A stretch of DNA of 64,000 bases from an uncultured Candidatus Saccharibacteria bacterium (GTDB lineage Bacteria; Patescibacteriota; Doudnabacteria; UBA920): assembly GCA_964631145.1 (NCBI GenBank), contig CAZVXT010000002.1, positions 1,140 to 65,139 on the forward strand, given 5' to 3'. Under the pieces are notes generated by a model. The model was given only the letters and a program-made list of their open reading frames with translations, searched no databases and had not been told where the DNA came from. Within the stretch, counting starts at the first letter, position 1. Every line of letters begins with the position of its first letter. Below are positions 1 through 17,816 of the stretch, piece after piece. The translations under genes and the position numbers were made by a program.

Positions 1-274
1 CAATACCAGAAATTTCTTTAGCCGCATCACAAAAACGTGCGTAATCTGCCTCCTCCGCTGTGTTTGTAGGTCTTTTTGAGAGGTCAGTTGTTCTAATAAC
101 CATCAATGATTTATTTGGAGCGTATTGATCAAGTAATTTCAAAATCCCTACAATTCGTTTTGAATCATATCGGTTGTGTTGCGAGAAATGAAGTCCTCGA
201 TACTTATCGTCAGAGATTCTTTTTGTAATAAACTCTAACGCTTTATTTCCTTGGTTAATATCAATTAATGCCAT
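1..274 (-). CDS. Hypothetical protein, 5' end only. ATG at 272-274 on the minus strand; the ORF runs open to the window start in a frame different from the upstream MTase. Possibly the partner (e.g. nuclease) of the methyltransferases.
   Basis: Manual translation of the reverse complement of 1..274 gives MALIDINQGNKALEFITKRISDDKYRGLHFSQHNRYDSKRIVGILKLLDQYAPNKSL... with no stop. It is not in the ORF track because it runs off the window edge. Confidence 0.3.
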   Translation of the reverse strand, partial: MALIDINQGNKALEFITKRISDDKYRGLHFSQHNRYDSKRIVGILKLLDQYAPNKSLMVIRTTDLSKRPTNTAEEADYARFCDAAKEISGI

Positions 275-1043
275 ATTCTTTGAGATTCTTTTTTGATAAT
301 TCTACATATTTTTTATCCATGTCTGAACACAGATAATTTCTTTGTAACCTGTTGGCGGCTACAGCAGTAGTACCACTTCCAACAAAACAATCCATAACCA
401 GGTCTCCTTTTTTTGAACTTGCCTTAATAATCCTTTCAACTAGGTCAAGAGGTTTTGGTGTTAAGTGACCCATCTTTTGTGTTTTACCGTTTACCTTTCT
501 TTTATGTCTTTCACTTGTTATGTGCCATACCTCGCCACAAAAACGACCCTCAGGGTTCGGAAACCATCTTTTACCATTTTTTAATATGCCTTTTTCTGCG
601 GCGTGTTGCATTCTTTCTGTCGATTCGTAAGGTATTCGAATATCGTTGTAGTTGAAAGTGTGCTTATTTGATTTTGTAAAAAAAAGTATTGTCTCCTGAC
701 CATTACTATATTTTTTCTTTGAAGCGCCCATACCGTCACGTTTATCCCAAGTTATCCAATTTTGAAATACCATTTTTTTTGAAACTAGATACTGCAAAAT
801 AAAAGCAGAGTTGTACGGCGTATTAAATACGTACAAACTTCCATTACTTTTTAATTTATCAATAACCAAATCAAGCCATGCGTAGGTAAAATCCAAAAAT
901 TCCTTTTGAGACCTGAAAGTATCCCAATCAGCCTTATGCATATTATAAGGTGGGTCAATTACAGCAAGATCAATAGAATTATTATCAACCTTTTTAAGGA
1001 AGTCGAAACAGTCTAGGTTGTAGATTTTATTAATTTCTAGCAT
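261..1043 (-). CDS. Beta-class DNA methyltransferase, N6-adenine type. Motif IV (DPPY) precedes a C-terminal motif I (FxGxG).
   Basis: Protein contains 'LAVIDPPYNM' (DPPY catalytic motif) near the N-terminus and 'DCFVGSGTTAVAA' (AdoMet-binding motif I) near the C-terminus. This order is typical of the PF01555 N6/N4 MTase family. Confidence 0.8.
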   Translation of the reverse strand: MLEINKIYNLDCFDFLKKVDNNSIDLAVIDPPYNMHKADWDTFRSQKEFLDFTYAWLDLVIDKLKSNGSLYVFNTPYNSAFILQYLVSKKMVFQNWITWDKRDGMGASKKKYSNGQETILFFTKSNKHTFNYNDIRIPYESTERMQHAAEKGILKNGKRWFPNPEGRFCGEVWHITSERHKRKVNGKTQKMGHLTPKPLDLVERIIKASSKKGDLVMDCFVGSGTTAVAANRLQRNYLCSDMDKKYVELSKKNLKEYGIN

Positions 1044-1045
1044 AA

Positions 1046-1876
1046 CTAGTCTTTTAATTTTAACTTAATAACCCTTTCATAACTTTTTGATATTTCGTAA
1101 CCTACATACTTTCTCCCTAACTCCTTTGCAACTTTAAGTGTAGTGCCTGAACCAGCAAATGGGTCCAAAACCGTTTCGCCAAAAAAAGTAAATAGTTTTA
1201 CACATCTCCTAACTATTTCCTCAGGCATAATTGCTGAGTGTTCTCCGAAAGCAATATCTCCCTTACCAGGGATCGGGATGTTCCATATTTGTTTCGTAAG
1301 TTCAACCCATTCTTTTTGAGTCAATTTACTTTTTTCTTTTATGTCTTTTGGAACATTATTTTCTGGTTGTCCATCTTTAACAAACACGGTAATAAACTCA
1401 ATTGTATTTTGGGCATAAAAATTACGTGGATATGGATAACTTCCAAACATTAACTTCTTTGAGGGATTGGTTCTATTCCAAATGTATACATCCATCAAAA
1501 AAAGACCTGTACCGTTCAAAATTGAATGTTCAATATCACTATTAATATTAAAAATATGTCTGTTGTAGTGAGTAATTAAATTCTTTTTTAACATCGGCAT
1601 TAACGGAGTATTAACAATTAATTTTCCGTTTGGCTTCAACACTCTTTCACACTCTTTCCAAACCGCTAACATTTCTTTAATATATTTTGAATAGTCAGAA
1701 ATATCTCCAATTTGTCCCTTGGCTTTTGCTGCTTGTTTTTTTTCTTGACGACCATCGAGAGAATAGTCTTTGATATTAAAATACGGTGGACTAGTTACGA
1801 TCAATTGCACAGAGTTATCAGGTAACTCCTTCATGTTTCTCGCATCCTTAAAAAATACTTTGTTGTTATATTCCAT
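1046..1876 (-). CDS. Beta-class DNA methyltransferase, N4-cytosine or N6-adenine type, with an SPPY motif.
   Basis: 'LIVTSPPYFN' (SPPY motif IV) is N-terminal and 'DPFAGSGTTLKVA' (motif I) is C-terminal. It lies 3 nt from the adjacent MTase and on the same strand. Confidence 0.8.
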   Translation of the reverse strand: MEYNNKVFFKDARNMKELPDNSVQLIVTSPPYFNIKDYSLDGRQEKKQAAKAKGQIGDISDYSKYIKEMLAVWKECERVLKPNGKLIVNTPLMPMLKKNLITHYNRHIFNINSDIEHSILNGTGLFLMDVYIWNRTNPSKKLMFGSYPYPRNFYAQNTIEFITVFVKDGQPENNVPKDIKEKSKLTQKEWVELTKQIWNIPIPGKGDIAFGEHSAIMPEEIVRRCVKLFTFFGETVLDPFAGSGTTLKVAKELGRKYVGYEISKSYERVIKLKLKD

Positions 1877-1880
1877 AAAA

Positions 1881-2087
1881 TTATTTTTTCAATTGCTTTT
1901 TTGCAATTTTCACATTTGAGGTTATTTGCAAAAAAATCTCAAGGTCTTTTTCATTAATTCTCCAATAGCCGACCTTTGATGCTTTTAATTTGCCCTCATG
2001 AATGTAGCGAAATACAGAGCGTTCACTAACACGGAGAACCTCTGCAACTTCTTTTGTATTAAGAAATTTTGTAGTCATATTTTTCAT
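1881..2087 (-). CDS. Excisionase / MerR-type HTH DNA-binding protein (Xis-like).
   Basis: 'LNTKEVAEVLRVSERSVFRYIHEGKLKASKVGYWRINEKDLEIFL' is a classic HTH_17/excisionase-family signature. The likely start is MKNMTTKF (ATG at 2085-2087), preceded by AGGAGG 7 nt upstream; the track ORF starts 15 codons earlier. Confidence 0.6.
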   Translation of the reverse strand: MKNMTTKFLNTKEVAEVLRVSERSVFRYIHEGKLKASKVGYWRINEKDLEIFLQITSNVKIAKKQLKK

Positions 2088-2150
2088 TTGGTCTCCTCCT
2101 TCCATTTTAACTTTTATGAAAACATATGTCAAAGTGTGTCATATTGTTTC

Positions 2151-2179
2151 TTGATTAAATAATACGGTGGAGTTATAAT
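2151..2179 (+). promoter_or_regulatory. Sigma-70-like promoter, TTGATT-17-TATAAT, driving the GC-rich RNA and cargo genes.
   Basis: ttgatt (2151-2156), a 17-nt spacer, then tataat (2174-2179). It is divergent from the Xis-like gene. Confidence 0.4.
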
Positions 2180-2186
2180 AAATATG

Positions 2187-2340
2187 CTACCCATAGAAAT
2201 TATCGTACCCGCATAGGGCAGACGCACGTTTTTTGTGTCCAACATAGTTGTGACCAAAGACGGGCAACTGTCCCTGCCACAACTACGCCCTTGCGGCGAT
2301 AGTCTCTGTGGGTAGCCAGGTCAACGGTTGCCCCTTTTTT
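2187..2340 (+). ncRNA. Candidate structured sRNA or cis-acting leader of ~155 nt. It is GC-rich, has a closing 12-bp stem, and ends in an intrinsic terminator.
   Basis: It begins 7 nt after the -10 element. The 5' gctacccataga pairs with the 3' tctgtgggtagc (G-U compatible), and tagttgtg pairs with cacaacta. It ends with gggcaac...gttgcccc+TTTTTT at 2326-2340. GC content is far above the ~33% surroundings. There is no ORF. Confidence 0.35.
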
Positions 2341-2396
2341 GTAATTAGTTAGGCGTACCGATAACTTGATTAATAATTAAAGTTATTCAAACGTCT

Positions 2397-2900
2397 ATGA
2401 AAAATATAATAAAAAATTTGGCGATTACATTTTTATTTGTCGCCATTATGTATGTTTTGTTTGCCTTTGAGAAAGACCTACTTCTTAAAATCGTATTTAT
2501 TTTATTCTTGATTTTTGTTGCAGATTGGATTTGGAGGGTTGTACAAAAAGAACGCATAAAAAATCCTGATTACGTTGCAAAACAGGTAGCAAAAAGTCTC
2601 AAAAAATGGAGAGAGGATGCTAAGTTTTGGATTGATAGACAGAACCCTGAATATATTCAAGCCAACAACCAATTTAATGAATTTGAATCAATATATTTCA
2701 AACTTTGGGAAAAGTTCCTTCATGACAAAAATAAACGACTTGAAATAGTTAGAGACTGGGCAACCTTTATCGAATCGCAGTTAAAAGCATTGGCTATTAA
2801 CTCAGACGACATAGATCCTGAATCAAAAAAGAAGTATGGCTATTTGCAAATAAGGATTGAGGAAATAAAAAAGCGTTTTGATAAGTTGAATAAGGAATAA
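2397..2900 (+). CDS. Hypothetical membrane protein with two N-terminal transmembrane helices and a cytoplasmic helical domain. It is cargo of the integrative element.
   Basis: 167-aa ORF. The N-terminus 'LAITFLFVAIMYVLFAF...IVFILFLIFVADWIW' is hydrophobic. No recognisable family. Confidence 0.55.
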   Translation: MKNIIKNLAITFLFVAIMYVLFAFEKDLLLKIVFILFLIFVADWIWRVVQKERIKNPDYVAKQVAKSLKKWREDAKFWIDRQNPEYIQANNQFNEFESIYFKLWEKFLHDKNKRLEIVRDWATFIESQLKALAINSDDIDPESKKKYGYLQIRIEEIKKRFDKLNKE

Positions 2901-2956
2901 TTTGCCCCAGGGCAAATGTTCGATAAATACTACGTAAAATAGTAAAATGAAGTGAT

Positions 2957-3841
2957 ATGGGTGCAGATTTAACCAAACCTAAATTAACCATTGCCGAAGT
3001 TTCTATGGGTTATACAAAACCTGTGGACCGTTCGGATCGAATGCTTATTGACCTTAAGCGTCTTTTGATTTTATTAAAAGATGAATCATTTTTTAACACG
3101 ATAGATAATTTGTGGTCAAAATTAAAACTCCCTGAGTTGGCGGCCCAGGAGGACTTGGAAAACAAAGGATTAGTAACCCTACCACATCGAGTTGGTATTA
3201 ATTCAAAATACTTAAATTCTATTTCAGTAGATGCTAGAGAGACGATCGAAAAAGAAGTTTATTCAAAAGTACTAAAGAAGTATGAATTGAGTTTTAATTT
3301 TTATCCTTTTATTGAATTTTATTTACTTTATCACTCACTCCTGAGGTTAAGAGAACCTATTTCGCCAGTACAGCCAAATCCCAAAATGTATAACCTATAC
3401 AAGAAATATCCTCTTGAGTTTTTAAGGAATCCTCACACGACAAGCGATATCAATTTTTTCATAATGAAAGCAAAAACAGCAATGTCTTTACATAAATACA
3501 AAGCAGATAAAGACGACCTTTCGCTATTGCGAGATTTGAAAACTATTCTACAAATTAACAAAAACAAAGAACGTGGCGGTAGTATTGAAAAAATAAATAA
3601 ATTCTTAATAGCCTTAAAATCTATCGAAGTTCATGGTAAGGAAATCGGTAGAGATTGTGATGGTAGAAAAGTCATAAACACATATGCAATGCTATCGGCA
3701 GATTTTATTCCATTGGATTTTGAACTGATACCAGGTAACAACCTTTCAATTTTTAAGAAAAAGCAAAAACTAGAATCTGATAACTTAAGAAAAGCAATAC
3801 AAAGAGCAGAAAAGTTAAAGAATAAATTACTAAAAAATTAA
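2957..3841 (+). CDS. Hypothetical cytoplasmic protein, cargo of the integrative element, with no recognisable domain.
   Basis: 294-aa ORF located 57 nt after the previous gene and on the same strand. A terminator follows at 3873-3898. Confidence 0.55.
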   Translation: MGADLTKPKLTIAEVSMGYTKPVDRSDRMLIDLKRLLILLKDESFFNTIDNLWSKLKLPELAAQEDLENKGLVTLPHRVGINSKYLNSISVDARETIEKEVYSKVLKKYELSFNFYPFIEFYLLYHSLLRLREPISPVQPNPKMYNLYKKYPLEFLRNPHTTSDINFFIMKAKTAMSLHKYKADKDDLSLLRDLKTILQINKNKERGGSIEKINKFLIALKSIEVHGKEIGRDCDGRKVINTYAMLSADFIPLDFELIPGNNLSIFKKKQKLESDNLRKAIQRAEKLKNKLLKN

Positions 3842-3872
3842 GTTCCACTTAGCGAATGAGCCGCTTGATATA

Positions 3873-3898
3873 ACTCCAGTATGAGACTGGAGTTTTTT
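3873..3898 (+). terminator. Intrinsic terminator.
   Basis: actccagt-atgag-actggag followed by TTTTTT. Confidence 0.6.
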
Positions 3899-4189
3899 CT
3901 TGTCTCAAGACGTCGGGTGCAAAGTGGATCTATTCCACTTCCGAGAAAAGGTCAACTGCACCCTGATCTCTATCGGAAGTGAAATAGGTCCATTTTCTAT
4001 TTCACCCAAATGACTAAAAGGTCGAAAAACATATGGTAAGCGATAAAGCACTACAAGAACTAAAAGAAGTATTCCAATTGGAAAAAGGATACATTCCTGA
4101 GGAAAAGGAATTAGTGCTTTATGCTACCAAATTATTAACCCTAATGGACCATGTCTTTAAGCCAATAAAAAAGGACTGGGTGCAGAAAC

Positions 4190-4726
4190 ATGAACAACAA
4201 CAAACAGGAAATAAAACCGAACCGTGATAAGCCTGGATACTCAGGTGGTAACACTTGGATTGATAGATTTGAAAGAAAAACTTTCAATGCAAGCGAATCA
4301 TACAAAAGGTTTGATAAATCCATTCTAAGAAAAAAAGATAAAGCTACTCGATTATTCATTGATAATGAATTTATTGAAAAAGGATATCTTGCTGCTTTAC
4401 CTCATCAAACAATATCCGTGTACATGGCACTTATTAAGCACTGCAACACTAAAACCCAAACAGCATTCCCTTCACATAAAACCCTACAAAGACTAGCTGG
4501 GATAAAAAACAAAAATTCACTGATTGCTAGCATCTCAATTCTTGAGGATCTGAACATAATTAAAGTCATAAGAAGTAAAGGAGGTGTGAATTGTTCGAAT
4601 CACTATGGGTTTGTAAATTCTGATTATTGGATAGGGATTAATCCTGCATATCGGTTCAAAAAATTCAGAATCAAACAGTATCAAAATAATAAAGATGAGT
4701 ATCAAAAAGATGATAGCAATGAGTAA
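4190..4726 (+). CDS. Winged-HTH replication-initiator-like protein (phage/plasmid DnaD/RepA-like HTH_36 type).
   Basis: 'ISVYMALIKHCNTKTQTAFPSHKTLQRLAGIKNKNSLIASISILEDLNIIKV' matches the pattern of phage replisome-organiser / replication-initiator wHTH domains. Confidence 0.45.
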   Translation: MNNNKQEIKPNRDKPGYSGGNTWIDRFERKTFNASESYKRFDKSILRKKDKATRLFIDNEFIEKGYLAALPHQTISVYMALIKHCNTKTQTAFPSHKTLQRLAGIKNKNSLIASISILEDLNIIKVIRSKGGVNCSNHYGFVNSDYWIGINPAYRFKKFRIKQYQNNKDEYQKDDSNE

Positions 4727-4810
4727 CAAAATTGATACTCTAACTAACCTAATGAAACTAACCGATTTAACTAACCGAAGTGCAAAAAATTTGCACTGTT
4801 TGGGAAAAAT

Positions 4811-5059
4811 ATGAGACCCAAATGGCTAGAGGAATATCAGAATAGAATCCTTAAAAAGTTCGAGTATCGAAACTTGAATGGAACTTTTGCTAAGGGAAAC
4901 CCAGGAGGTCCTGGCAGACCAAGAGTTGATTTCCTTAAGCGTGCTGGAATTTACCGCAAAGTACCTCTTGAGCATATGTCTCCTGAAATGAGAGAGATAT
5001 CACTTAGAGCAGAACGTGGTGATTACAAGGCACTCAAAATTATTAAAGACTCGTTGTAA
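4811..5059 (+). CDS. Small phage-like protein with a GNPGGPGRPR motif, possibly terminase small-subunit-like or DNA-binding.
   Basis: 82-aa ORF. A 'KGNPGGPGRPR' motif of this kind occurs in terminase small subunits and other phage DNA-binding proteins. Confidence 0.35.
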   Translation: MRPKWLEEYQNRILKKFEYRNLNGTFAKGNPGGPGRPRVDFLKRAGIYRKVPLEHMSPEMREISLRAERGDYKALKIIKDSL

Positions 5060-5247
5060 AAATTGCCCCAGGGCAACAAATAAACCGAGAAAACCGACAA
5101 ATTCATTCCCCCAAGGAAATCAAAATTTGTTCCCAGGAACAAAAATAAACGGTGAAAACGGACAAAATCACACAAAAGTCACTGGAGTTATGCCAATCCA
5201 CTAGACTTCTATTAAAAATTAAGGCATGTTCGTAATAAGAAAACCCT

Positions 5248-6909
5248 ATGAAAAACCCACAAGATAACACAATCAAATACTTTATTTACGCCCGTAAGTC
5301 GAGCGAGGATAAAGAAAAGCAGGTCGCCTCAATTGGTGACCAATTAGAAGTACTAAACAAGGTCGCAAAGCAAAACAAATTAAACATAGTAGAAATTTAT
5401 GAGGAATCACAATCAGCCAAAGAACCAGGCAGACCACAGTTCAATACCATGCTCGCACGAATTGCTAAAGGCGATGCTAATGGGATACTTTGTTGGAAAC
5501 TTGATCGGTTGGCTCGCAATCCTCTTGATGGTGGGCAAATAAACTGGATGGTGCAGAAAGGCATAATTCAAATTATTAAAACCAACGAGAGAGACTACTT
5601 CCCAAGCGATAACGTTCTCATGATGCAAGTTGAGCTAGGAATGGCGAACCAATACTTGCGAGACCTTTCAACTAACGTAAAGAGAGGTTTAGCAAAAAAG
5701 ATACGAGACGGCTGGCTACCAAGTCTTGCACCGATCGGATACTTAAACGATAGAACTAACGAAAAAGGAAACCGTACAATAATGAAAGACCCCGAAAGGT
5801 TTGATATTGTAAGGAGAATTTGGGACCTTGCACTTACTGGAACTTATACAGTCCCACAGTTATGGGAAATAGCCTACAGGGATTTAGGGCTAAGAACAGT
5901 TCAAAGAAAAAACAGTGGTGGTAGACCAATATCAAAAAGCGGAATGTACTCACTACTAACAAACCCTTTTTATTACGGAATGATTCGCTATCCTGAAAAG
6001 ACTGGCGAATTAAACCAGGGCAAACACGAACCAATGATAACGGTCCAAGAATTCGAGCGTGTTCAAGAGATAATGGGCAAACGTGATGCAATACGACCAC
6101 AAAAAGAAACCTTTGCTTTTACAGGGCTAATGAAGTGCGGAAGCTGTGGTTGCTCGATAACTGCCGAGAGTAAAGTAAAGAAATGCAAAAACGGGAATAG
6201 TCACTACTACACGTACTACCACTGCACTAAAAAGAAAGTAGACATTAAATGCGAGGAAAAGTGCGTTGAGGTTAGAAAGTTAGAAGTTATGTTCAAAGAG
6301 AAACTCGCAGATTTACAGATATCAGACGCTTTCAAAGCCTGGGCAATAAAACACTTGCATGAAGTAAGGACCGTGGAAGCAGACAGTAACAAAGTTGCGG
6401 TGAGCGCAGCCTCAAAGGAATTAACCAGCGTATTGGACCAAATACGAGCGTTATCACTTAACTACATGTCTCCGCAAAACATAAACAGATCAATAATGAC
6501 TGAGAGTGAATACCTTGAAATCAAAAACGATTTATTAAAAAAGAAAGGTGCTGCTGAGAATAGAGTTCAATCAACATCAAATGAATTAGAGTCATGGATG
6601 GAATTAAGTGAAAAAACTTTTAACCTCGCATACTATGCAAGCGTTTGGTTTGAAAATGGAACGAATGAGCAACGTAAAGCAATAATGTCTTGTTTAGGCT
6701 CGAACCTCACACTAAAAGACGGAAAAGTCCAACTATACCTGCATCCTTTCCTAGAAACGCTAATTGAAAACAAAAAATCAGTGAGTGTTGAAACGGTCCA
6801 CGCTCGAACCTCCAAAAAGTCAATGATACAAACACAAAACGCCGCTTTCGGCGACGTTTGTACTACTTGGCTCGGGAGCTGGGATTCGAACCCAGGACCG
6901 ATCGGTTAA
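5248..6909 (+). CDS. Large serine recombinase (phage-type integrase). Its 3' end overlaps tRNA-Asn.
   Basis: The N-terminal resolvase catalytic domain is 'YARKSSEDKEKQ...GDQ' with the catalytic Ser and 'LDRLARN'. A recombinase domain and a zinc ribbon 'CGSCGCS...YYHCTKKK' follow. The last ~14 codons lie within the tRNA sequence. Confidence 0.9.
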   Translation: MKNPQDNTIKYFIYARKSSEDKEKQVASIGDQLEVLNKVAKQNKLNIVEIYEESQSAKEPGRPQFNTMLARIAKGDANGILCWKLDRLARNPLDGGQINWMVQKGIIQIIKTNERDYFPSDNVLMMQVELGMANQYLRDLSTNVKRGLAKKIRDGWLPSLAPIGYLNDRTNEKGNRTIMKDPERFDIVRRIWDLALTGTYTVPQLWEIAYRDLGLRTVQRKNSGGRPISKSGMYSLLTNPFYYGMIRYPEKTGELNQGKHEPMITVQEFERVQEIMGKRDAIRPQKETFAFTGLMKCGSCGCSITAESKVKKCKNGNSHYYTYYHCTKKKVDIKCEEKCVEVRKLEVMFKEKLADLQISDAFKAWAIKHLHEVRTVEADSNKVAVSAASKELTSVLDQIRALSLNYMSPQNINRSIMTESEYLEIKNDLLKKKGAAENRVQSTSNELESWMELSEKTFNLAYYASVWFENGTNEQRKAIMSCLGSNLTLKDGKVQLYLHPFLETLIENKKSVSVETVHARTSKKSMIQTQNAAFGDVCTTWLGSWDSNPGPIG

Positions 6910-6942
6910 CAGCCGATAGCTCTACCGCTGAGCTACTCCCGA
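6868..6942 (-). tRNA. tRNA-Asn (anticodon GTT), 75 nt with encoded CCA.
   Basis: The reverse complement is TCGGGAG-TA-GCTC-AGCGGTA-GAGC-T-ATCGG-CTGTTAA-CCGAT-CGGTC-CTGGG-TTCGAAT-CCCAG-CTCCCGA-G-CCA. This is a canonical cloverleaf with a 7-nt anticodon loop and GTT at positions 34-36. Confidence 0.9.
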
Positions 6943-7067
6943 ATATTCAATTTTTTGATCCTTATTATATTACCAAACCTTTATATATTTTTCAATCCCT
7001 GTTTTAACATATGTAAAAAGTCAAATAAATGATATAATTATAATACAAAAAACAGTGTTGTATCGAA

Positions 7068-8876
7068 ATGAAAAATCAAAATTCATTCAAAAATAAAGAT
7101 ATTTTAAGTGGCGGTTTTACGATAATTGAAGTCGTTATTGGAATCGGTATCCTTATAATTTTACTTGTAGGAGTTTTGGGTGCATATAATTCTTTAACTC
7201 GTTCAACCTTAGGGGCAAGACAGCAGGCAATTATAACTTCATTAGCTGCTCAGAATAGTGAAATTATCAGGAATATGTCATACAGTTCTGTAGGGACTAT
7301 TAACGGTAACCCTAATGGAGTTTTGTCGGATTATAGCAATCCAACTAATGTTACGATTGAAGGTACGGTATATTCAACATATTATGAGGTGGCATATATA
7401 GATGACCCTGCTGATGGTACAATTTTGGCTGGAACAGATCCTGCTCCAAATGACTACAAACAAATAAAGATGTTTGTAAAGAATAATTCTACAAATGTAA
7501 TAACTCCTTTTATTACTAATGTTGCCCCAGCGGGATTAGAAGGACTTAATAATGCAGGGGCTTTAGTTATTAATGTTTTGGATTCTAACGGGCAAGCAGT
7601 TGCTAATGCAAATATTCATATCCAAAGTGTTGGAATATCTCCAGCAATTATTTTGGATCGTCAATCTGATTTAACTGGCAATTGGGTTGAAGTAGGGCTA
7701 CCGGCAGGAGCTAATGCCTATAATATCACTGTGACAAAAAATGGTTATTCTACTGATAAAACATACCCAATTACCTTAGGTAATCCTAATCCTACTAAAC
7801 CAGATTCAACAGTTGTCAATGGTCAGATAACTCAAATCAGCTTTGCTATAGATACGTTGGGTAATTTGACAATAAAGACTTTAAATCAAACTTGCCAGGC
7901 GATTAATGGAATAAATTTGAACGTTGCCGGATCAAAAATTATTGGTAGTACACCAACAGTTTTGAAATATAGCAATAATTTTACTTCATCATCCGGACAA
8001 GTTGCGTTAAATAATATTGAATGGGATACTTATACACCCACTTTATTAACTGGTCAAAGTTATATGGTTTATGGCTCATCGCCAATCCAGCAAATTACTG
8101 TTTTACCAAGTGCTTCCCAAACTTTTTCTCTAATATTAGGACCGGTGTCTACAAATAGTTTGCTAGTAATTGTAAAAGATTCGGCTACGAAGACTGCTTT
8201 AGAAGGAGCTTCGGTGAGATTGACTAATAGTAGTCCTAGCTACGATCAATCTAAAGTAACCGGCGGTAGTATTTGGCAGCAAACAGACTGGACAGGTGGT
8301 TTAGGTCAAGATAATTTTACCGATTCTACAAAGTACAAAACTCAAGATACTAATATTACCACTACTGGGGTGCCTAATGCATTGCGTCTTCAGCAGCTTA
8401 GTGGAAATTATGTTGCAAGTGGTTGGTTAGAATCGTCCAGTTTTGATACTGGTGCCTCAAGTAATTATACAACTATATCTTGGTCACCAGCATCACAAGT
8501 GGCAGGGGCAGTTGTTAAGTTCCAATTAGCTAGTAATAATGATAATACTACATGGAGCTATAAAGGTCCTGACGGAACCTCAGGTTCTTATTATACAATT
8601 GCGGGATCAAATATTGCTGCAGTTCACGACGGTGATCGTTATATTCGTTATAAGGTTTATCTATCAACTTCAGATACTACTAAGACACCTGTGTTAACAA
8701 GTATGGTGATAAATTATGTTTCTGGATGTTTTACTCCAGGACAAGTTATGTTTCCAAGCTTAACAGCTAATAATAATTATTCTGTTAATATTTCTTTACC
8801 TGGATACCAGGATAAAACAGTTAATAATTTAAATATTTCTGGAAATCAAACATTAGAAGTATTGCTTTCACAATGA
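7068..8876 (+). CDS. Large type IV pilin-like / pseudopilin protein with a prepilin-type N-terminus.
   Basis: The N-terminus is 'LSGG|FTIIEVVIGIGILIILLVGVLG': a class III signal, Gly followed by F at +1, Glu at +5, and a hydrophobic helix. It has 602 aa and is Thr/Ser/Asn-rich. Confidence 0.6.
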   Translation: MKNQNSFKNKDILSGGFTIIEVVIGIGILIILLVGVLGAYNSLTRSTLGARQQAIITSLAAQNSEIIRNMSYSSVGTINGNPNGVLSDYSNPTNVTIEGTVYSTYYEVAYIDDPADGTILAGTDPAPNDYKQIKMFVKNNSTNVITPFITNVAPAGLEGLNNAGALVINVLDSNGQAVANANIHIQSVGISPAIILDRQSDLTGNWVEVGLPAGANAYNITVTKNGYSTDKTYPITLGNPNPTKPDSTVVNGQITQISFAIDTLGNLTIKTLNQTCQAINGINLNVAGSKIIGSTPTVLKYSNNFTSSSGQVALNNIEWDTYTPTLLTGQSYMVYGSSPIQQITVLPSASQTFSLILGPVSTNSLLVIVKDSATKTALEGASVRLTNSSPSYDQSKVTGGSIWQQTDWTGGLGQDNFTDSTKYKTQDTNITTTGVPNALRLQQLSGNYVASGWLESSSFDTGASSNYTTISWSPASQVAGAVVKFQLASNNDNTTWSYKGPDGTSGSYYTIAGSNIAAVHDGDRYIRYKVYLSTSDTTKTPVLTSMVINYVSGCFTPGQVMFPSLTANNNYSVNISLPGYQDKTVNNLNISGNQTLEVLLSQ

Positions 8877-9505
8877 TAAAAAATAAAACTCGGCAAATAT
8901 TTAACAAAGGGTTTACTTTAATCGATGTGGTTATATCGGTTGCAATTTTTACTATGATTATTTCGGGAATCATTGCATTAACCTCATCGATATTAGTTGA
9001 TAGTAGTCGTCAAGCCATGACCTTATCTAATTCTGATCAGTCTCGTAAGTTAAGCTTTCAGATTATGCAAGAACTACGAAACGCTAACTATGGCAATGAT
9101 GGTTCTTATCCAATAGCTGGTGCTGATGATCAACAATTAATATTTTTTAGCAATATTGATAGTGATGTGCAAGTAGAGCGTATAAGATATTATTTATCTA
9201 ACGGAAAACTATATAGAGGGGTTGTAGAGCCAACAGGAACTCCACCAACTTATAATACAGCAAATGAAGTTTCTAGAGTTGTACAAAATGATGTAGCAAA
9301 CGGAAGTGTCCCTATATTTTATTATTATCCAGATACATACACTGGTACTGGTAGTGCGTTATCACAGCCTGTCAACTATACAAAAGTGAAATTAATAACT
9401 TTAAATTTACGTGTTTATACCAAAGTGGCAAAAAGCGCTTCGGATTATTTTACAATTCAAGCAAGTACAGCAATACGTAGTTTGAAAAGCAATATAGGAA
9501 GCTAA
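8873..9505 (+). CDS. Pilin-like (minor pilin / pseudopilin) protein.
   Basis: 'NKG|FTLIDVVISVAIFTMIISGIIAL' is a prepilin-like N-terminus with an acidic residue at +5 (D). It overlaps the upstream gene by 4 nt. Confidence 0.55.
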   Translation: MIKNKTRQIFNKGFTLIDVVISVAIFTMIISGIIALTSSILVDSSRQAMTLSNSDQSRKLSFQIMQELRNANYGNDGSYPIAGADDQQLIFFSNIDSDVQVERIRYYLSNGKLYRGVVEPTGTPPTYNTANEVSRVVQNDVANGSVPIFYYYPDTYTGTGSALSQPVNYTKVKLITLNLRVYTKVAKSASDYFTIQASTAIRSLKSNIGS

Positions 9506-10926
9506 TGAATATATTATTAAGCAAAAAATTTAAGCAAAATGGTTCTATTATAGTTTTTGAAGTGTTAATTATCTTTGTGTTTTCTGTAGTGATGCTGGCG
9601 GTAATGGCTATGGCAGCAGGGCAATTTAGAATTTTACGTTCGACTGCAGTTAAAGAACAAGCTTTTCAGATAGCCGAATCTGGTATTAATTATTACCAAT
9701 GGCATTTGGCTCATTTTCCTAATGACTTTAAAGATGGTACTGGGGCTGCTCCTTCTAATCAAACTAATTTTACAAACCCTTGTTATTTGCATTCTTATCA
9801 AGACAAAGATACTAACGCAACAATTGGTTACTATTGTTTAGAAATTACACCACCATTAGTAGGATCTACTATAGTTACTATTAAATCCACTGCTTATGCG
9901 GTATCTAATCCAAAAATTAAAAGAGTTATCACTTCAAGATATGGAATTCCATCTTTGGCTAAATATTCATTCTTAACTAATAGTGATGTCTGGATAGGTA
10001 ATACAGAATCTGTAGTTGGTGCTATGCATTCGAACGGAGGTATAAGATTTGATGGCTCATCAACCGGACCTACAACATCTGCTAAAACCACTTACACATG
10101 TCAGTCTTACCATGGGTGTAGTCCGGCTAGCACTAAAGCCGGGATATGGGGGAATGCTAACCAGGCAACTAAAAATTTGTGGTCTTATCCAGTGCCTAAT
10201 GTTGACTTTTCTGCTATGACTTCCAACTTAGCTTCTTTAAAAACTTCTGCTCAAAATGGGGGTTTGTACTTAGCTCCCTCTAATGCTCAAGGCTATTCTT
10301 TAGTATTTAATTCAAATGGAACTATCTCTGTTTATAAAGTAACTTCATTACGATCTACACCTACAGGTTATGATGTAAATAATGTTGCTCATAATGAAGA
10401 TTTGGATTATAACGCTCGTACCTTACTTTCTCAGGCTAGTATTCCAAGTAATGGAGTAATTTATATCGAAGATCAGGTCTGGGTGGAAGGAACCGTTGCA
10501 GGTCGTGCTATAGTCGCAGCCGCAAAATTGCCATACAATAGTTCTACTGCACCAAGTATTATAATTCCAAATAATATTAATTATACTGTTAAAGATGGTA
10601 CTGTATCGTTAGGATTGTTGGCTCAAAATAATATTTTAGTAAGTTATTATTCGCCCAATATTTTAAATATTGACGCTGCTTTAATTGCACAAAATGGCAG
10701 TGTGCAAAGATTTTACTATGCTAATGATGTGAAAACATCACTTACCACATATGGTACAGTTGCAAGTTATGGAACTTGGACATGGAATTGGTCCAGCGGT
10801 AATTCTATAGTTTCTGGTTATCAGTCTACTGTGACGACTTATGATTCTAATTTGTTGTACGCTCCACCTCCAAGTTTTCCTTTAGCTTCTAGTAGTTATC
10901 AGCAAATTAGTTGGGTTAGTAATTAA
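9505..10926 (+). CDS. Pilin-like large protein with an atypical prepilin N-terminus.
   Basis: 'QNGSIIVFEVLIIFVFSVVMLAVMAMAAGQ' is a G-hydrophobic-E pattern with the Glu at +6 rather than +5. It is translationally coupled to the previous gene by a 1-nt overlap. Confidence 0.45.
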   Translation: MNILLSKKFKQNGSIIVFEVLIIFVFSVVMLAVMAMAAGQFRILRSTAVKEQAFQIAESGINYYQWHLAHFPNDFKDGTGAAPSNQTNFTNPCYLHSYQDKDTNATIGYYCLEITPPLVGSTIVTIKSTAYAVSNPKIKRVITSRYGIPSLAKYSFLTNSDVWIGNTESVVGAMHSNGGIRFDGSSTGPTTSAKTTYTCQSYHGCSPASTKAGIWGNANQATKNLWSYPVPNVDFSAMTSNLASLKTSAQNGGLYLAPSNAQGYSLVFNSNGTISVYKVTSLRSTPTGYDVNNVAHNEDLDYNARTLLSQASIPSNGVIYIEDQVWVEGTVAGRAIVAAAKLPYNSSTAPSIIIPNNINYTVKDGTVSLGLLAQNNILVSYYSPNILNIDAALIAQNGSVQRFYYANDVKTSLTTYGTVASYGTWTWNWSSGNSIVSGYQSTVTTYDSNLLYAPPPSFPLASSSYQQISWVSN

Positions 10927-10931
10927 AATAT

Positions 10932-11318
10932 ATGAACAAAATTATCAGTTTAGCATTTGTTATTTTTATGTTCCCGAGCATAGCGTACGCTACGGCAAGA
11001 GTGCCAAGTGGACAAATGCCAAATTTACCACCATTGCAACAAATTGATTTTGGGGTGCAACCTAATTACAGTAATAATATTCAAACTGAGGATCAGGCTG
11101 AACAAAACTCTAGTACACAAACCCATTCTACAGAACAGTCATTTGATAAGCAAAATTTAGACAATGAAGGGGTGGCTGATGTCAAACAAGTGGTTGTGCC
11201 CAAAACAGAAACAAGTTCTCATAATTGGTTGACCTATTTAATTATACTCTTTTTATTAATGATTATAGGATTGGCTACCTTTTTGGTTTTTAAAAACTAT
11301 TCTAAAAATATTAAATAA
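10932..11318 (+). CDS. Secreted protein with a Sec signal peptide and a C-terminal TM anchor followed by a basic tail; pilus-cluster associated.
   Basis: The N-terminus is 'IISLAFVIFMFPSIAYA'. The C-terminus is 'WLTYLIILFLLMIIGLATFLVFKNYSKNIK'. Confidence 0.5.
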   Translation: MNKIISLAFVIFMFPSIAYATARVPSGQMPNLPPLQQIDFGVQPNYSNNIQTEDQAEQNSSTQTHSTEQSFDKQNLDNEGVADVKQVVVPKTETSSHNWLTYLIILFLLMIIGLATFLVFKNYSKNIK

Positions 11319-11358
11319 GTCTACTATAGAAACCATTTTATTAGTCAACTTATAAGTT

Positions 11359-11655
11359 ATGGTAATTATCAAGTTAAAATTTTATAAAATTATAATGCTA
11401 AGTTTGATATTTGTTGCAGGGCAATTATGGTTAAAACCTGTTTTAGCAGATAGTTCAGATAATATTCGATCACAACAAGCAAGTAGAGTGATAATAGATG
11501 AGACTGTAACTTCTCAACAGCAAGATGGCTCAACTAATATTGCAACTTTAATTTTTTCTGTGATTGGATCTTTGGGTTTGTTTGGCATTGCCTTTTTGGC
11601 AATTAGAAGTTTTTATAATAATTCTAAGCAGAATAAAAAACCAAATGATAATTAA
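11359..11655 (+). CDS. Small secreted protein with a C-terminal TM anchor and basic tail.
   Basis: A signal peptide is followed by 'LADSSD...', and the C-terminus is 'IATLIFSVIGSLGLFGIAFLAIRSFYNNSKQNKK'. Confidence 0.45.
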   Translation: MVIIKLKFYKIIMLSLIFVAGQLWLKPVLADSSDNIRSQQASRVIIDETVTSQQQDGSTNIATLIFSVIGSLGLFGIAFLAIRSFYNNSKQNKKPNDN

Positions 11656-12934
11656 GAACTTTATTCAATTAGCTACAACACCTGTCAGAAAGCAGGCTTT
11701 GTTAATTGCAGAAGCTGGATTAGAGGCAATTAACACGACCAGAATAATGCAAAGAGATTTTTCTTACGATGCTAAATCGGACACTTTGTATATTAAAGGA
11801 CAAAAGTTTGATTTATCAAAGTATAAGAGAGTTTTAGTAGTTGGCGGTGGTAAAGTGGTTGCAGAAGCTGCTGTGATTATCGAACAACAATTGGGTAGTA
11901 GATTGTCTGCGGGGTTGGTAATAGACTTAGTTGCTAGCAAGACTTCTATTATACAAGGCAGAATTGGCACTCATCCTTTGCCAAGTTCGGCAAATGTCTC
12001 CGCAACTCAAGAGATGATTTCTATGCTCTCGGAGTGCACGGAAAATGATTTGGTAATAGCAGTAATTGCGGGTGGTGGTAGTAGTTTGATGTGTGCTCCC
12101 GCAGAAATAACTTTAGATGAAGAGCGCCAGTTAACCAAAACTTTAATGCATAGCGGCGCAAGCATTATAGAAATTAATACTGTTCGGAAGCATATGAGTT
12201 TGATAAAAGGTGGTGGTTTGGCTAAGTTTGCCCATCCAGCTACAGTCATTGGTTTGATATTTAGCGACGTGCCTGGGGATGATTTAACAGAAGTGGCAAG
12301 TGGACCAACTTTTAAAGACGATTCGACTATAAATGACGCCATGGCAATATTGCAAAAATATAGTATTTTGCAAAAATGCAGTATGGATAGTTGTGGCTTA
12401 ACAGAAAGTCCAAAAGCTAGTCACTATTTTGATAAAGTTACTAATATTATGTTTTGTTCTGCCAAAGATGCTTTAAATGCAATGGTGGAGAAGTCAAAAA
12501 ATTTGGGATTGAAACCACGAATATGGCAAACCGCTTTTGAAGGCGAAGCTTCAGTCTTAGCTAAAACTATTTTGGATCAAGCAAAGCCAGGAGAATGTTT
12601 GCTTGCCGCTGGTGAAAGCGTAGTAACCATACCACCAGATGCAGTAGGGGGCAGTGGGGGGCGTAATCAAGAAATGGCTTTGTCGGCAATGACTTACATT
12701 GATGATAATGCGGTGTTTGCCGCGATAGCCTCTGATGGACATGATAATAGCGATGTTGCTGGGGCGATAGTAGATCTGCATACCAAGCGTCTAGCTCGAA
12801 AAACCGGAGTTAATGTGCAAGAATATCTAAAGAGGCACGATGAATATCAGCTAATGCTAGATTTATCTGCCAGCTTAGTTACTGGTTTGACCGGATCCAA
12901 TGTTTCAGATTTTATAATTTGTATTAAAGAATAA
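11645..12934 (+). CDS. Glycerate 2-kinase (MOFRL family).
   Basis: 'VLVVGGGKVVAEAA' and the C-terminal 'GGSGGRNQEMALSA' signature are characteristic of the MOFRL/DUF4147 glycerate kinase family. The start was chosen at ATG 11645 to avoid a 90-nt overlap with the upstream gene; the track starts at 11564. Confidence 0.65.
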   Translation: MIIKNFIQLATTPVRKQALLIAEAGLEAINTTRIMQRDFSYDAKSDTLYIKGQKFDLSKYKRVLVVGGGKVVAEAAVIIEQQLGSRLSAGLVIDLVASKTSIIQGRIGTHPLPSSANVSATQEMISMLSECTENDLVIAVIAGGGSSLMCAPAEITLDEERQLTKTLMHSGASIIEINTVRKHMSLIKGGGLAKFAHPATVIGLIFSDVPGDDLTEVASGPTFKDDSTINDAMAILQKYSILQKCSMDSCGLTESPKASHYFDKVTNIMFCSAKDALNAMVEKSKNLGLKPRIWQTAFEGEASVLAKTILDQAKPGECLLAAGESVVTIPPDAVGGSGGRNQEMALSAMTYIDDNAVFAAIASDGHDNSDVAGAIVDLHTKRLARKTGVNVQEYLKRHDEYQLMLDLSASLVTGLTGSNVSDFIICIKE

Positions 12935-12937
12935 TCT

Positions 12938-13900
12938 ATGAATATTACAACTTACGAGCTTTCTAAAGCTGATAATCTTTTTCTTAAAAATAATTTAAAA
13001 GGATCTGTTCTTCGTACTAATCAAAATGCTCTTATTAAATTAATTAAGCCAGATTTGTGGTCTGAAGGATTAATTGTTCATAGTGGCTCTCGAATTGGAC
13101 TTGATGTGCTTAAAAACTTACCTAATTTAAAATTCATATTAACCAGAACAGCTGGGGTTGATCATATCGATGAAAAAGCTTGTCAAAAATTAGGAATAAA
13201 GTTATTACATTTACCTGGTCAAAACGCACGCTCTGTAGCAGAGTTTGCAATGGGTTTGATTTTGACCACTTCTCGTCAGATCTTTGCCTCAGCAGCAGCT
13301 TTAAAAAAGCAATTAAAATTTCCAAAAGCAGTATATTACGGACATGAACTGCAAGGTAAGACTTTGGGTGTTGTGGGCACTGGTGCGATAGGAAAGAATC
13401 TTATTACTATCGCAAAGCTTGGCTTTGGTATGAATGTTATTGCTTTTGATGTTATGCAAGACAAGCAGGCAGAAAAAGACTTGGGTTTTGAGTACGTTAC
13501 ATTACCTGATTTGCAATCACAAGCAGACATAATTAGCTTGCATGCTCCATTAACCAAGCAAACTGCTGGTATGGTAAATGATGCATTTATTAATGCTTGC
13601 AAAAATGGATTGATTTTAATTAACACCGCCCGCGGCGGTTTGGTTAAAAGCTCTGCTATATTGAAGGCATTGCAATCCAAGAAAATGATTGGTTATGGTA
13701 CCGATGTTTTTGGAGAAGAATGTGGTCTTCGAGGACAAAAAATCACAGCTGCACAAAAAGCTCAGTTAGCTTTAGATAAAAAGTTGATCCGCCACCCTCT
13801 TGTTGTTGCTACTCCTCATATGGCGCATGCGACTGTTGACTCTAATGACCGCATAAATCAGCAAACAGTCAGCTTAATTTTAGATATAATTAAAAGCTAA
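12938..13900 (+). CDS. D-isomer-specific 2-hydroxyacid dehydrogenase (hydroxypyruvate/glycerate dehydrogenase-like).
   Basis: Contains the NAD-binding motif 'GKTLGVVGTGAIGKNL', 'DIISLHAPLTKQTAGMVN', and catalytic-region motifs of the D-2-hydroxyacid dehydrogenase family. Confidence 0.8.
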   Translation: MNITTYELSKADNLFLKNNLKGSVLRTNQNALIKLIKPDLWSEGLIVHSGSRIGLDVLKNLPNLKFILTRTAGVDHIDEKACQKLGIKLLHLPGQNARSVAEFAMGLILTTSRQIFASAAALKKQLKFPKAVYYGHELQGKTLGVVGTGAIGKNLITIAKLGFGMNVIAFDVMQDKQAEKDLGFEYVTLPDLQSQADIISLHAPLTKQTAGMVNDAFINACKNGLILINTARGGLVKSSAILKALQSKKMIGYGTDVFGEECGLRGQKITAAQKAQLALDKKLIRHPLVVATPHMAHATVDSNDRINQQTVSLILDIIKS

Positions 13901-14060
13901 GTTTTGCATATATCTTAACAATGCCCACAATAAATTAATACTCTAAAATATTTTTGTGGATAAGGCTTGTCGTACAATATTTAAGGCGCTTAAACTTTAA
14001 TGTTTAAGTGCTTTTTACTTTATTGAGTTCTACTATATCTAGCGTTATAATTTTAATAGT

Positions 14061-14076
14061 CACACTATATTTGGTG
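14061..14076 (+). promoter_or_regulatory. Candidate NrdR box (16-bp palindrome) ~25 nt upstream of nrdR.
   Basis: cACACTATATTTGGTGg matches the published NrdR-box consensus acaCwAtATaTwGtgt. Confidence 0.4.
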
Positions 14077-14100
14077 GCTGACAATATTAATAAAAATAAA

Positions 14101-14547: not shown

Positions 14548-14587
14548 TCTAATCAATTTAAAGAATTATTATTAAAAACCAAAATAC

Positions 14588-17590: not shown

Positions 17591-17596
17591 GCGATA

Positions 17597-17713
17597 GGTT
17601 TACATTTTTCGATAACTACTTCGTTGTAAATTCCGTTCCTCGTTCGACGTAGTTATTACTACGTCTCACTCAGTACTCATTTACGCCTCGTATTTATTCG
17701 AAAAATGTAAACC
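17597..17713. repeat. Nested palindrome between nrdA and nrdB. A 15-bp perfect outer IR encloses a 12-bp inner IR.
   Basis: ggtttacatttttcg (17597-17611) pairs with cgaaaaatgtaaacc (17699-17713). The inner ataactacttcg (17612-17623) pairs with cgacgtagttat (17645-17656) with one mismatch. Confidence 0.5.
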
Positions 17714-17816
17714 TTAATGTATGCCTCAAACTATACAGTTTCATATAGAGAAAATTAATCAGAAATTATTTTTCATAAAGAGAAGTAAGATCAATAATTA
17801 GAAGACTATTAATAAA

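Follow-up and report, generated by a model that had tools for sequence, protein, structure and literature searches.

We analysed a 64,000-nucleotide stretch of contig CAZVXT010000002.1 (GenBank assembly GCA_964631145.1, positions 1,140 to 65,139), referred to below as the window, and focused on the DNA leading up to a tRNA-Asn gene near its left end. An integrative island, ~7.96 kb long as measured in a relative, L001, is likely to be inserted here in a Patescibacteria chromosome, its right-hand 6.9 kb corresponding to positions 1-6873. According to the mechanism that we propose, the island would be mobilised by a large serine integrase, which recombines an attP site located within its own gene (int) with the extreme 3' end of tRNA-Asn and leaves the tRNA whole. 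Comparison of relatives shows that integration fuses the body of int to the antisense strand of the tRNA, so that the enzyme acquires a host-dependent tail (GSWDSNPGPIG followed by a stop in the window), and the DNA coding for the linker in front of this tail would double, on the other strand, as a replacement terminator of the tRNA gene. Further inside the island, a gene for an HTH_17 protein heads a cargo slot, filled in the window by an MboII-type restriction-modification operon.

The tRNA-Asn(GTT) gene was called at 6868..6942 on the minus strand by both ARAGORN and Rfam (70.6 bits). The open reading frame (ORF) of the large serine recombinase (5248..6909, plus strand), encoding 553 residues as integrated, overlaps it by 42 nt (6868..6909), an overlap that spans the 3' half of the tRNA. 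An initial annotation, made from the sequence alone, had noticed this overlap and proposed an integrative element driven by a large serine integrase at tRNA-Asn; its coordinates are confirmed by ARAGORN, Rfam and Pfam, and the comparison of junctions described below supports the proposal. In the 553-residue ORF, Pfam detected Resolvase (PF00239, 76.3 bits, residues 12-155), Recombinase (PF07508, 36.5 bits) and Zn_ribbon_recom (PF13408, 27.3 bits against a cut-off of 25.3), each exceeding its cut-off, and matches in the PDB were to the SPbeta and A118 serine integrases. The nucleophile motif YxRxS is present as YARKSS, in the context ..YARKSSEDKEKQ... The part of the enzyme encoded by the element (5248..6873, plus strand) comprises, judging from Pfam, PDB and an AlphaFold model of the homologue P0031, the catalytic domain with YARKSS, the recombinase domain, the zinc ribbon, a coiled coil and a predicted-disordered linker. 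The host-encoded tail with its stop codon (6874..6909, plus strand) is an antisense reading of the tRNA and varies with the host tRNA allele. With this set of domains, and with att identity of only 4 bp and no tRNA-derived repeat, the protein appears to be a bona fide large serine recombinase.

The boundaries of the element were derived from its relatives. An exact-sequence look-up of the 260-residue methyltransferase led to contigs with the same element, and L009 and L010 were reached through an integrase homologue 95% identical to that of the window. L001 is 97.6% and L002 ~92% identical to the window, and L003-L006 are 95-96% identical over the parts they hold. Although these elements share 92-98% identity with that of the window (L001, L002, L003, L009), the tRNA-Asn next to them occurs in three different alleles, which are only 75-80% identical to one another, and the genes beyond the tRNA also differ among the hosts. 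Next to the integrase gene, the allele reads ..CTCCCGAGCCA in the window, ..CCGGGGAGCCA in both L001 and L002, and ..CATCGGAGCCA in L009. The DNA common to the elements ends at TGGCTC, that is, at the core GCTC (6870-6873); therefore, the body of the tRNA is host DNA. The suggestion of the initial annotation that the element supplies part of the tRNA and part of the C-terminus of its own integrase is thus reversed: element DNA makes up just two bases of tRNA-Asn, those 3' of the core (6868-6869, the CA of CCA). The tRNA gene (6868..6942, minus strand), according to ARAGORN, Rfam and the junctions, is the host target, attB, and stays intact. At the far end of the island, L001, L002 and L003 are identical through ..CACGATGTGGAGC (..GTGGAGC) and diverge completely beyond it, and comparison of both junctions gives the 4-bp common core GCTC. 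In the window, this core (6870..6873; GAGC at tRNA positions 71-74) is the attR core and the right boundary of the element, with the crossover inside it, as indicated by the junctions of the window, L001, L002, L003, L009 and L011 and by both junctions of L143. The left boundary lies elsewhere. Since the gene of a 411-residue restriction enzyme runs off the left edge, positions 1..274 (minus strand) coding only for its N-terminus, the window opens inside the element, and 1..6942 is not the whole of it. Judging from L001, what lies beyond that gene is ~130 nt of non-coding DNA, a displaced 3' end of int, and attL.

The displaced fragment brings us to the division of int on integration. Comparison of the junctions places attP inside the integrase ORF, 23 codons ahead of the native stop, and the last 23 codons (LHIVNEVITYFKTTDQYHYIPSFQ and the stop) are found moved to the far end of the island on integration. 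Ends joined through the core stay in frame (..ACT ACT TGG CTC CAC ATC GTG AAC .. CAA TAA) and yield an integrase of 565 residues, which continues as ..TTW-LHIVNEVITYFKTTDQYHYIPSFQ and finishes with ..TTWLHIVNEVITYFKTTDQYHYIPSFQ before the stop. This protein aligns with the homologue P0031 through residue 561 of 565 and with P0018 through residue 565. P0031, which also has 565 residues (tail ..TWLPLVNDVITYFRTNPEYIYIYKP..), and P0018 are not found beside any tRNA, and the reconstituted tail is similar to the ends of those few homologues that do not finish in tRNA antisense, for example P0031, P0009, P0018 and P0040. Between L001 and L003, the displaced fragment shows four synonymous and no non-synonymous codon differences, and it is under purifying selection. 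The tail of the integrated enzyme, on the other end, follows the host allele: in the window it finishes with ..TTWLGSWDSNPGPIG, whereas L001 has ..TTWLPG and L009 has ..TTWLRW, each followed by a stop; the ending ..WLGSWDSNPGPIG and stop is common to the window and L011. The antisense strand of the host tRNA thus gives the integrase its final residues and its stop codon. The location of attP within int is indicated both by the junctions and by the reconstituted tail, and the two halves are seen together in the more distant L143. Integration removes 23-42 residues from the C-terminus of the integrase, with all folded domains retained.

L143, a contig of NCBI assembly GCA_964509605.1, encodes an integrase 54% identical to that of the window. 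Its attL reads ..TTTCTCTA[GCTC]GACTTAGTG.. and is followed immediately and in frame by LDLVREVVTFWKTNKDHIWIPNIKQGFFGITQPTAEEMMSYK and a stop, a 42-codon int fragment matching the tails of P0040 and P0018. The attR, ~7 kb further on, reads ..CACTAGG[GCTC]CGGAGACAGGATTCG.., the right side being the 3' exon of tRNA-Asn. Having attL, the same GCTC core, the split tail and attR in a single contig, L143 appears to provide independent confirmation of the arrangement deduced from the close relatives. As a separate observation, the target tRNA-Asn of L143 (11702-11978, minus strand) is interrupted by a group I intron (Rfam RF00028, 92 bits), because of which it is invisible to ARAGORN.

The family to which the integrase belongs is large, with at least 5,735 relatives at E <= 1e-20 and 1,827 clusters (50% identity) at E <= 1e-30. 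We surveyed the tails of 115 full-length close homologues. In 51 of them the tail is antisense to the T-loop (for example, ..WDSNPRPIG, ..QDSNLRP or ..EDSNLHAFRRYH), always framed so that GAT TCG AAC reads D-S-N; another 47 end no more than five residues on, within the acceptor-stem antisense, and 17 have other long tails, mostly of the native type. Thus, tails antisense to the acceptor or T arm of a tRNA are found in ~85% of the 115. Among 143 representatives of the 50% clusters, which are 35-52% identical, at least 55 have T-loop-antisense tails, and many others have a native tail of the h-h-[DE]-[DE]-V-R-T type (DVRT-type). Targets confirmed in DNA are tRNA-Asn, tRNA-Gln(CTG) and tRNA-Leu(GAG), and the named homologues come chiefly from Brennerbacteria, Taylorbacteria and Zambryskibacteria. 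Native tails also occur in another setting: in L141 (1-21698) and L142, the native-tail integrase P0031 lies within more than 20 kb of mostly unknown genes, in an unclassified region without a tRNA. These include genes for a RuvC-like protein, a small resolvase, DUF1016/YhcG and HTH proteins, and the two contigs may represent an extrachromosomal or a larger mobile element with an integrase of the same clade. A further variant was noted in L144 (11720-12370), where the integrase ORF reads across the entire tRNA-Leu(GAG) and the adjoining gene has a faint LAGLIDADG match.

What the exchange of tails might mean for the enzyme can be judged from the AlphaFold model of P0031, a homologue in its native form (47-sequence alignment, mean predicted local distance difference test score, pLDDT, of 77.5). 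The model is ordered to about residue 512, covering the catalytic, recombinase, zinc-ribbon and coiled-coil regions, with long helices (357-467) between the zinc-ribbon strands; beyond this, residues 512-540 form a linker predicted with low confidence, and residues 539-551 a short helix with a pLDDT of about 58. According to this model, integration would exchange only the short C-terminal helix beyond the predicted-disordered linker. Because every folded domain is kept, the integrated enzyme is unlikely to be "suicidal". The linker region also has a second role to offer, at the DNA level. On the minus strand, a terminator-like hairpin with a T-run (6837..6859) lies inside the int coding sequence, ~10 nt past the tRNA's 3' end, and its stem is preserved through differing sequences in L011, L134 and L143. 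Native terminators consisting of a hairpin and a T-run were found outside attL in L143 and L002; in L143, this is a strong hairpin just beyond attL, oriented with the tRNA, and corresponds to the displaced terminator of tRNA-Asn. With the terminator-like structure encoded opposite the linker, the element would thus replace the terminator of the tRNA gene and not its 3' segment.

The cargo of the island in the window consists of three genes. M1 (261..1043, minus strand; 260 residues, DPPY motif) matches PF01555 with 205 bits and M.MboIIA (PDB 1G60) with E 5e-127 over residues 1-254, at an identity of roughly 70% estimated by eye from the alignment, and appears to be a homologue of this N6-adenine methyltransferase. 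M2 (1046..1876, minus strand; 276 residues, SPPY motif) matches PF01555 with 162.7 bits and the PADLOC MTase_II profile with E 1.1e-88; the solved structures closest to it are those of a putative modification methylase and of DNA cytosine-N4 methyltransferases, and M2 is probably an N4-cytosine enzyme for the second strand of an asymmetric site. The third protein, the type II restriction enzyme of 411 residues, is represented in the window by its N-terminal 91 codons (1..274, minus strand), the full gene being present in L001 (6621-7856). No match for it was found by sequence in PDB, Pfam or NCBIfam, and it was identified through PADLOC (REase_II, PDLC03506, E 1.7e-134, profile positions 7-413 of 416). 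Its start codon overlaps the stop of the preceding methyltransferase gene by 14 nt. Two methyltransferases and a restriction enzyme in a single operon (M2, M1, R) correspond to an MboII-type type IIS system. The initial annotation had seen the two methyltransferases correctly; they are not loose cargo and, together with the 411-residue enzyme, form a complete operon.

MboII recognises GAAGA. Not a single GAAGA/TCTTC is present in positions 1-6869 of the window, against 15.9 +/- 3.8 expected from 200 dinucleotide-preserving shuffles (minimum 7), and none is present in the L001 and L002 elements either, the expectation across the three elements being 16-19. The host part of the window (6943-64000) has 153 such sites versus 107 expected, that is, they are somewhat over-represented there. 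Sister backbones with other cargo are depleted as well (1 versus 12.4 in L009; 2 versus 11.9 in L011), and the cargo of L011 is not (27 versus 20.7). The absence of the sites indirectly supports GAAGA as the probable specificity of the cargo enzyme. The element would be immune to its own enzyme, since every GAAGA site appears to have been purged, and the host would need methylation for its protection; zero sites in the island versus 153 in 57 kb of host DNA would make it a clean example of a selfish restriction-modification carrier. The slot behind the HTH_17 gene is filled differently in other islands: with a different N6_N4 methyltransferase in L009, with type III Mod and Res in L011, with type III Mod and Res plus AAA_15/21 and SLFN_AlbA_2 proteins in L012, and with a methyltransferase and an MvaI/BcnI restriction enzyme in the more distant L143. 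The islands thus appear to be modular carriers of restriction-modification or defence cargo on a conserved backbone. MboII itself comes from the gammaproteobacterium Moraxella bovis. If this origin is right, the cassette may have crossed phyla fairly recently.

From the far end inward, the genes follow in the order int 3' fragment, restriction enzyme, M1, M2, HTH_17, a structured RNA, the 167-residue and 294-residue proteins, and then a long hairpin, the 64-residue protein, the 178-residue HTH_36 protein, the 82-residue protein, palindromes with repeats, and int. The backbone present in all of L009, L011 and L012 (68-95% identical) consists of int and the genes for the 82-residue, 64-residue and HTH_17 proteins; the structured RNA is likewise kept in the three. 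The HTH_17/excisionase-family protein heading the cargo operon (1881..2087, minus strand; PF12728, 49.8 bits; TIGR01764, 34.2 against a cut-off of 28.8; PADLOC mad1, E 9e-10) is 72-84% identical in L009, L011 and L012, their cargo differing. The longest form of its ORF extends to 2132, and a ribosome-binding site, GGAGGAG, accompanies the ATG at 2087; on the same minus strand there is a promoter-like site, TTGACA-17-TAAAAT (2132..2104). The protein is a candidate for either the controller of the operon or the recombination directionality factor.

Next to this gene, on the plus strand, a candidate structured RNA of ~155 nt (2186..2340) has a minimum free energy of -70 kcal/mol (z -6.8) and ends in a T-run. 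It is preceded by a promoter-like site close to the consensus (TTGATT-17-TATAAT, 2151-2179), and its predicted start is the first base of the long closing stem. The RNA is conserved in L001, L002, L003, L009, L011 and L012, with both sides changed in 8 base pairs; GGGCAAC/GTTGCCC may form a pseudoknot, and L012 has GGGCAG/CTGCCC in its place. The RNA matched no Rfam family, and a 16-mer scan of viral contigs for further copies gave 12 matches, all by chance. RNA-guided targeting by this RNA was considered and rejected, as the RNAs of the window and L001 are identical and the tRNA alleles are different.

The 167-residue protein with a hydrophobic N-terminus (2397..2900, plus strand) belongs to the backbone in the window, L009 and L011 (64-68% identical in the latter two) and had no family match in Pfam, PHROGs, NCBIfam or PADLOC. 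The 294-residue protein (2957..3841, plus strand) has homologues in L011 (74%) and L012 (41%) and represents a narrow clade, with only 12 homologues among 5.8 billion proteins; its AlphaFold model (pLDDT 49.7) is unusable. Both had been regarded as unknown cargo, and both turn out to be shared backbone of the nearest relatives instead. Upstream of the genes for the 64-residue and 178-residue proteins there is a long, imperfect, conserved hairpin (3915..4007, plus strand; z -7.3 folded as RNA and -4.5 as DNA), both stems of which covary in L012 as judged by eye; the hairpin might serve as an origin or an attenuator, or represent a small RNA. The 64-residue protein (4033..4227, plus strand) has homologues in L009, L011 and L012 at 48-67% and no Pfam match. 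Between the gene of the 82-residue protein and int (5063..5170, plus strand) lie palindromes of the TTGCCCCAGGGCAA type, each followed by AAATAAAC(C/G)G(A/T)GAAAAC(C/G)GACAAA, which make up two 39-nt direct repeats; an extra copy of the palindrome follows the 167-residue protein gene (2901-2916), and four copies occupy the same place in L134. These repeats are probably operator sites for int.

Several observations weigh against the island being a mobile element of the kind that we propose. The window's own far end lies outside the 64 kb, and the hosts do not share the flank-side half of attB, an unusual situation for a serine integrase. An excised circle, represented by the attP junction, was not found in viral contigs or in the local loci; an attP scan of metagenomes was also empty, but the queried junction lacked one base. 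An empty attB was not found either, but the metagenome pattern ..GAGCCA presupposed a CCA in the DNA, whereas empty sites probably read GAGC-A or GAGC-T. The pattern returned 120 tRNA-Asn genes, mostly unrelated; in one contig from this search, L054, a divergent integrase ends, in the same tRNA allele, with ..NWLPG and a stop. Loci L134-L139 have a 77%-identical int with its native tail intact, in the chromosome and with no tRNA nearby. In L134 (8539-11747), the tail reads ..WLRMLNEIRTFFRENPDAEF and stop, the sole companion of int is a 91-residue DUF5681-like gene, the locus is next to pheS/pheT, and an unusually GC-rich stretch follows it; these loci may be a remnant, a product of a tandem site or a domesticated copy. 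Finally, the ways in which the island would be transferred, replicate or have its direction of recombination set are putative. As for the copy of the tRNA 3' segment, which the initial annotation expected as a direct repeat at the other att site, none was found in L001-L006. Its absence does not refute mobility, because a serine integrase would leave a repeat of 4 bp only. Repeated assembly breaks at or in the tRNA (at tRNA position 51 in L001, at position 22 in L002 and at window position 6867 in L007) are compatible with heterogeneity in the population and are no proof of it; L007, a 64.7-kb Logan contig from SRR12712853, is 100% identical to window positions 6867-18876 and starts one base beyond the tRNA's 3' end. 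A by-eye search for a consistent shift between attP and attB half-sites gave no consistent pattern, and we make no claim in this respect; for A118, a 5-bp offset of the half-sites is known.

Some of the same observations would suit a decayed prophage or a fixed, immobile island remnant with the overlap of int and tRNA as a relic: neither circle nor empty site has been observed, the integrated int is without its native tail, and split integrases of the SSV type offer a precedent for elements locked in place. We nevertheless regard this as very unlikely, given that 92-98%-identical elements reside in hosts with different flanks and with tRNA-Asn genes sharing only 75-80% identity, that all ORFs are intact and the displaced int fragment is under purifying selection, and that cargo turns over on a conserved backbone next to an integrase retaining all its folded domains. 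Least probable of all, to the point of being contradicted already, is an accidental read-through of a convergent ORF into the tRNA, with the real att site elsewhere, for example, downstream of int. Short antisense overlaps between convergent genes are indeed common in compact genomes. However, the identity between elements ends exactly at GCTC, L143 has the matching second junction, and the overlap is not due to chance, because the tRNA-antisense tails recur at the same junction position and always in one frame in ~85% of the 115 homologues, across tRNA-Asn, tRNA-Gln and tRNA-Leu.

The alternative favoured by the initial annotation, a phage satellite resembling phage-inducible chromosomal islands (PICI), which a helper phage would induce and package, deserves closer consideration, although we find it improbable. 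In this case, the 82-residue protein would be a small terminase (TerS) and the 178-residue protein a replication initiator. In favour of this reading are the small size of the element, int at one of its ends, the lack of structural genes and an HTH_17 protein of the AlpA/Xis family, and dependence on a helper is conceivable. The 178-residue HTH_36 protein (4190..4726, plus strand; PF13730, 28.7 bits against a cut-off of 25) does have a weak match to PHROG 678, "replication initiation O-like" (E 3.8e-6); L011 has its gene, but L009 and L012 do not, which places it outside the universal backbone. The 82-residue protein with the GNPGGPGRPR motif (4811..5059, plus strand) is DUF5681-like, its L002 orthologue matching PF18932 with 28.6 bits (cut-off 27.5), and DUF5681 proteins do occur in phage genomes. 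However, it matched no TerS profile or PHROG and nothing in 50,697 phage records, so the TerS-like label could not be upheld. Its gene lies immediately 5' of int in L009, L011, L012 and L134, and the fact that it adjoins int even in the stripped-down L134-L139 argues for a role in integration rather than packaging; it may therefore be an accessory factor for integration. Pfam, PHROGs, NCBIfam and PADLOC revealed no capsid, tail, terminase, primase, helicase or relaxase among the proteins of the element, in agreement with the earlier remark that capsid, tail and large-terminase genes are missing, and neither capsid-morphogenesis nor ppi proteins were matched in the first three of these libraries. 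Moreover, ~3 kb of the 8 kb is taken up by the restriction-modification operon, and searches with single proteins for related loci gave one distant match in GTDB genomes and none, including for the integrase, in IMG/VR. Positive support for a satellite is thus not seen, even though the genes on which it had been based (those for the HTH_17/excisionase-family, HTH_36 and GNPGGPGRPR proteins and for two N6_N4 methyltransferases) are all present.

Returning to the integrative island driven by a serine integrase, its life cycle might be outlined as follows. Excision as a circle would restore the 565-residue integrase, the expected attP junction in the circle being ACTACTTGGCTCCACATCGTG, ACTACTTGGCTCCACATCGTGAACG. 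The empty attB should read as tRNA-Asn ..CCCAGCTCCCGAGC followed by non-element sequence, and attL as N-T-GCTCCACATCGTG, with the far end of the element in the window, ..T-GCTC-CACATCGTGAACGAAG.., expected ~1.09 kb to the left of position 1. The circle might replicate briefly with the help of the HTH_36 protein and the long hairpin; the direction of recombination might be controlled by the tail helix, the 82-residue protein or the HTH_17 protein; and natural transformation and phage transduction are candidate routes of transfer. Once integrated, the restriction-modification system would defend the host and stabilise the island through addiction. A broader proposition, which we put forward only tentatively and consider somewhat doubtful, is that serine integrases of a large clade, associated mostly with Patescibacteria, have become specialised for tRNA 3' ends with attP in their own ORF, that the exchange of the tail helix acts as a state sensor or directionality switch, and that such islands are a main vehicle of restriction-modification systems between lineages of the Candidate Phyla Radiation (CPR). 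In such a switch, the circle would produce the native DVRT-like tail and the integrated form a host-dependent tRNA-antisense tail, with one coding stretch providing the linker peptide, a half-site of attP and the terminator that replaces that of the tRNA.

As to the host, the best named relatives of the isoleucyl-tRNA synthetase encoded in the window are from Candidatus Doudnabacteria (64% identical) and a "Patescibacteria group bacterium". Taken together with the named integrase homologues, they identify the host as a CPR bacterium, in line with the small-genome host guessed earlier. Elsewhere in the window, the proteins encoded directly beside the tRNA (7068-9505) have N-termini that look pilin-like by eye only, the host tmRNA is at 29354-29740 (tag AFSNATLQPALA), and a TraG/VirB4-like P-loop ATPase is encoded near the right end (61590-63434). 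In Patescibacteria, whose genomes are tiny, few mobile elements have been described, and the island would be a concrete vehicle for gene flow and defence turnover among them.

How does the island relate to known systems? PICI are typically ~10-15 kb long and encode a tyrosine integrase with regulators (stl/str or alpA) next to it. The island resembles them in being small, bearing an integrase and lacking structural genes. It differs in size (7.96 kb), in its serine integrase, in the position of the HTH_17 gene (3 kb from int), in having a restriction-modification operon as cargo and in that a packaging module was not found; of replication functions, only the HTH_36 protein with its weak O-like match and the hairpin 3915-4007 as a possible origin come into question, with no primase or helicase. 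With the type IIS MboII system, the cargo shares an M1 ~70% identical to M.MboIIA, a second SPPY methyltransferase and a restriction enzyme of ~411-416 residues; the difference is that here the system is exchangeable cargo of an integrase-driven Patescibacteria island, with the recognition site deduced indirectly. Islander-type tRNA islands also integrate on the 3' side of tRNA genes and preserve tRNA function, but they use a tyrosine integrase and leave the displaced tRNA fragment as a repeat of 15-50 nt, in contrast to the serine integrase, the 4-bp repeat and the replacement terminator seen here. The nearest ecological analogue would seem to be the tycheposons of Prochlorococcus, small cargo elements next to tRNA genes in a streamlined genome without classical transfer machinery, a minority of which have large serine recombinases. 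Of 937 tycheposons, 910 have tyrosine recombinases, many encode primases, helicases or polymerases, and a split integrase is not reported in the text consulted.

Other large serine integrases, such as Bxb1, phiC31, A118, SPbeta SprA, CcrAB and XisF, have the same set of domains, very short att identity and int at the end of the element by attP. Unlike them, the integrase of the island targets tRNA 3' ends and has attP inside its own ORF, so that the tail is exchanged. Serine integrases are the main tools for inserting large DNA, and conserved tRNA landing sites together with a tail swap bear on both site choice and directionality. In a survey from 2020, only 14 of 297 serine-integrase elements were located at t(m)RNA genes, a use described there as previously unreported (PMC7192596), and in the text of the survey of large serine recombinases by Durrant (2022) the word tRNA does not appear.

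The arrangement of attP within int is known from tyrosine recombinases, and its bacterial serine version would mean convergent evolution. Myxophage Mx8 has its attB sites in tRNA-Asp genes. As in the island, attP of Mx8 lies within the int coding sequence (IntP/IntX), int acquires a new 3' end on integration, and the enzyme changed in this way stays active (PMC6070905); the differences are that Mx8 is a 49-kb phage with a tyrosine recombinase and a single described case, versus a large clade here. The archaeal "suicidal" integrases of the SSV type (SSV1, pTN3, pT26-2) share with the island attP in int, tRNA targets, a translated att, and int(N) and int(C) parts found at opposite ends (PMC7253208). 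They, in turn, are tyrosine recombinases "so far restricted to archaea" that are split into two inactive halves, whereas the integrase of the island loses only 23-42 C-terminal residues. In the literature searched, which covered few subscription journals, we found no description of this integrase clade or of such islands in Patescibacteria, which is weak evidence of novelty. Thus, the island appears to work like the SSV and Mx8 systems and yet, by its serine chemistry, not to be a member of either, and, if our interpretation is correct, its clade would be the serine-recombinase counterpart of the archaeal "suicidal" and Mx8 integrases.

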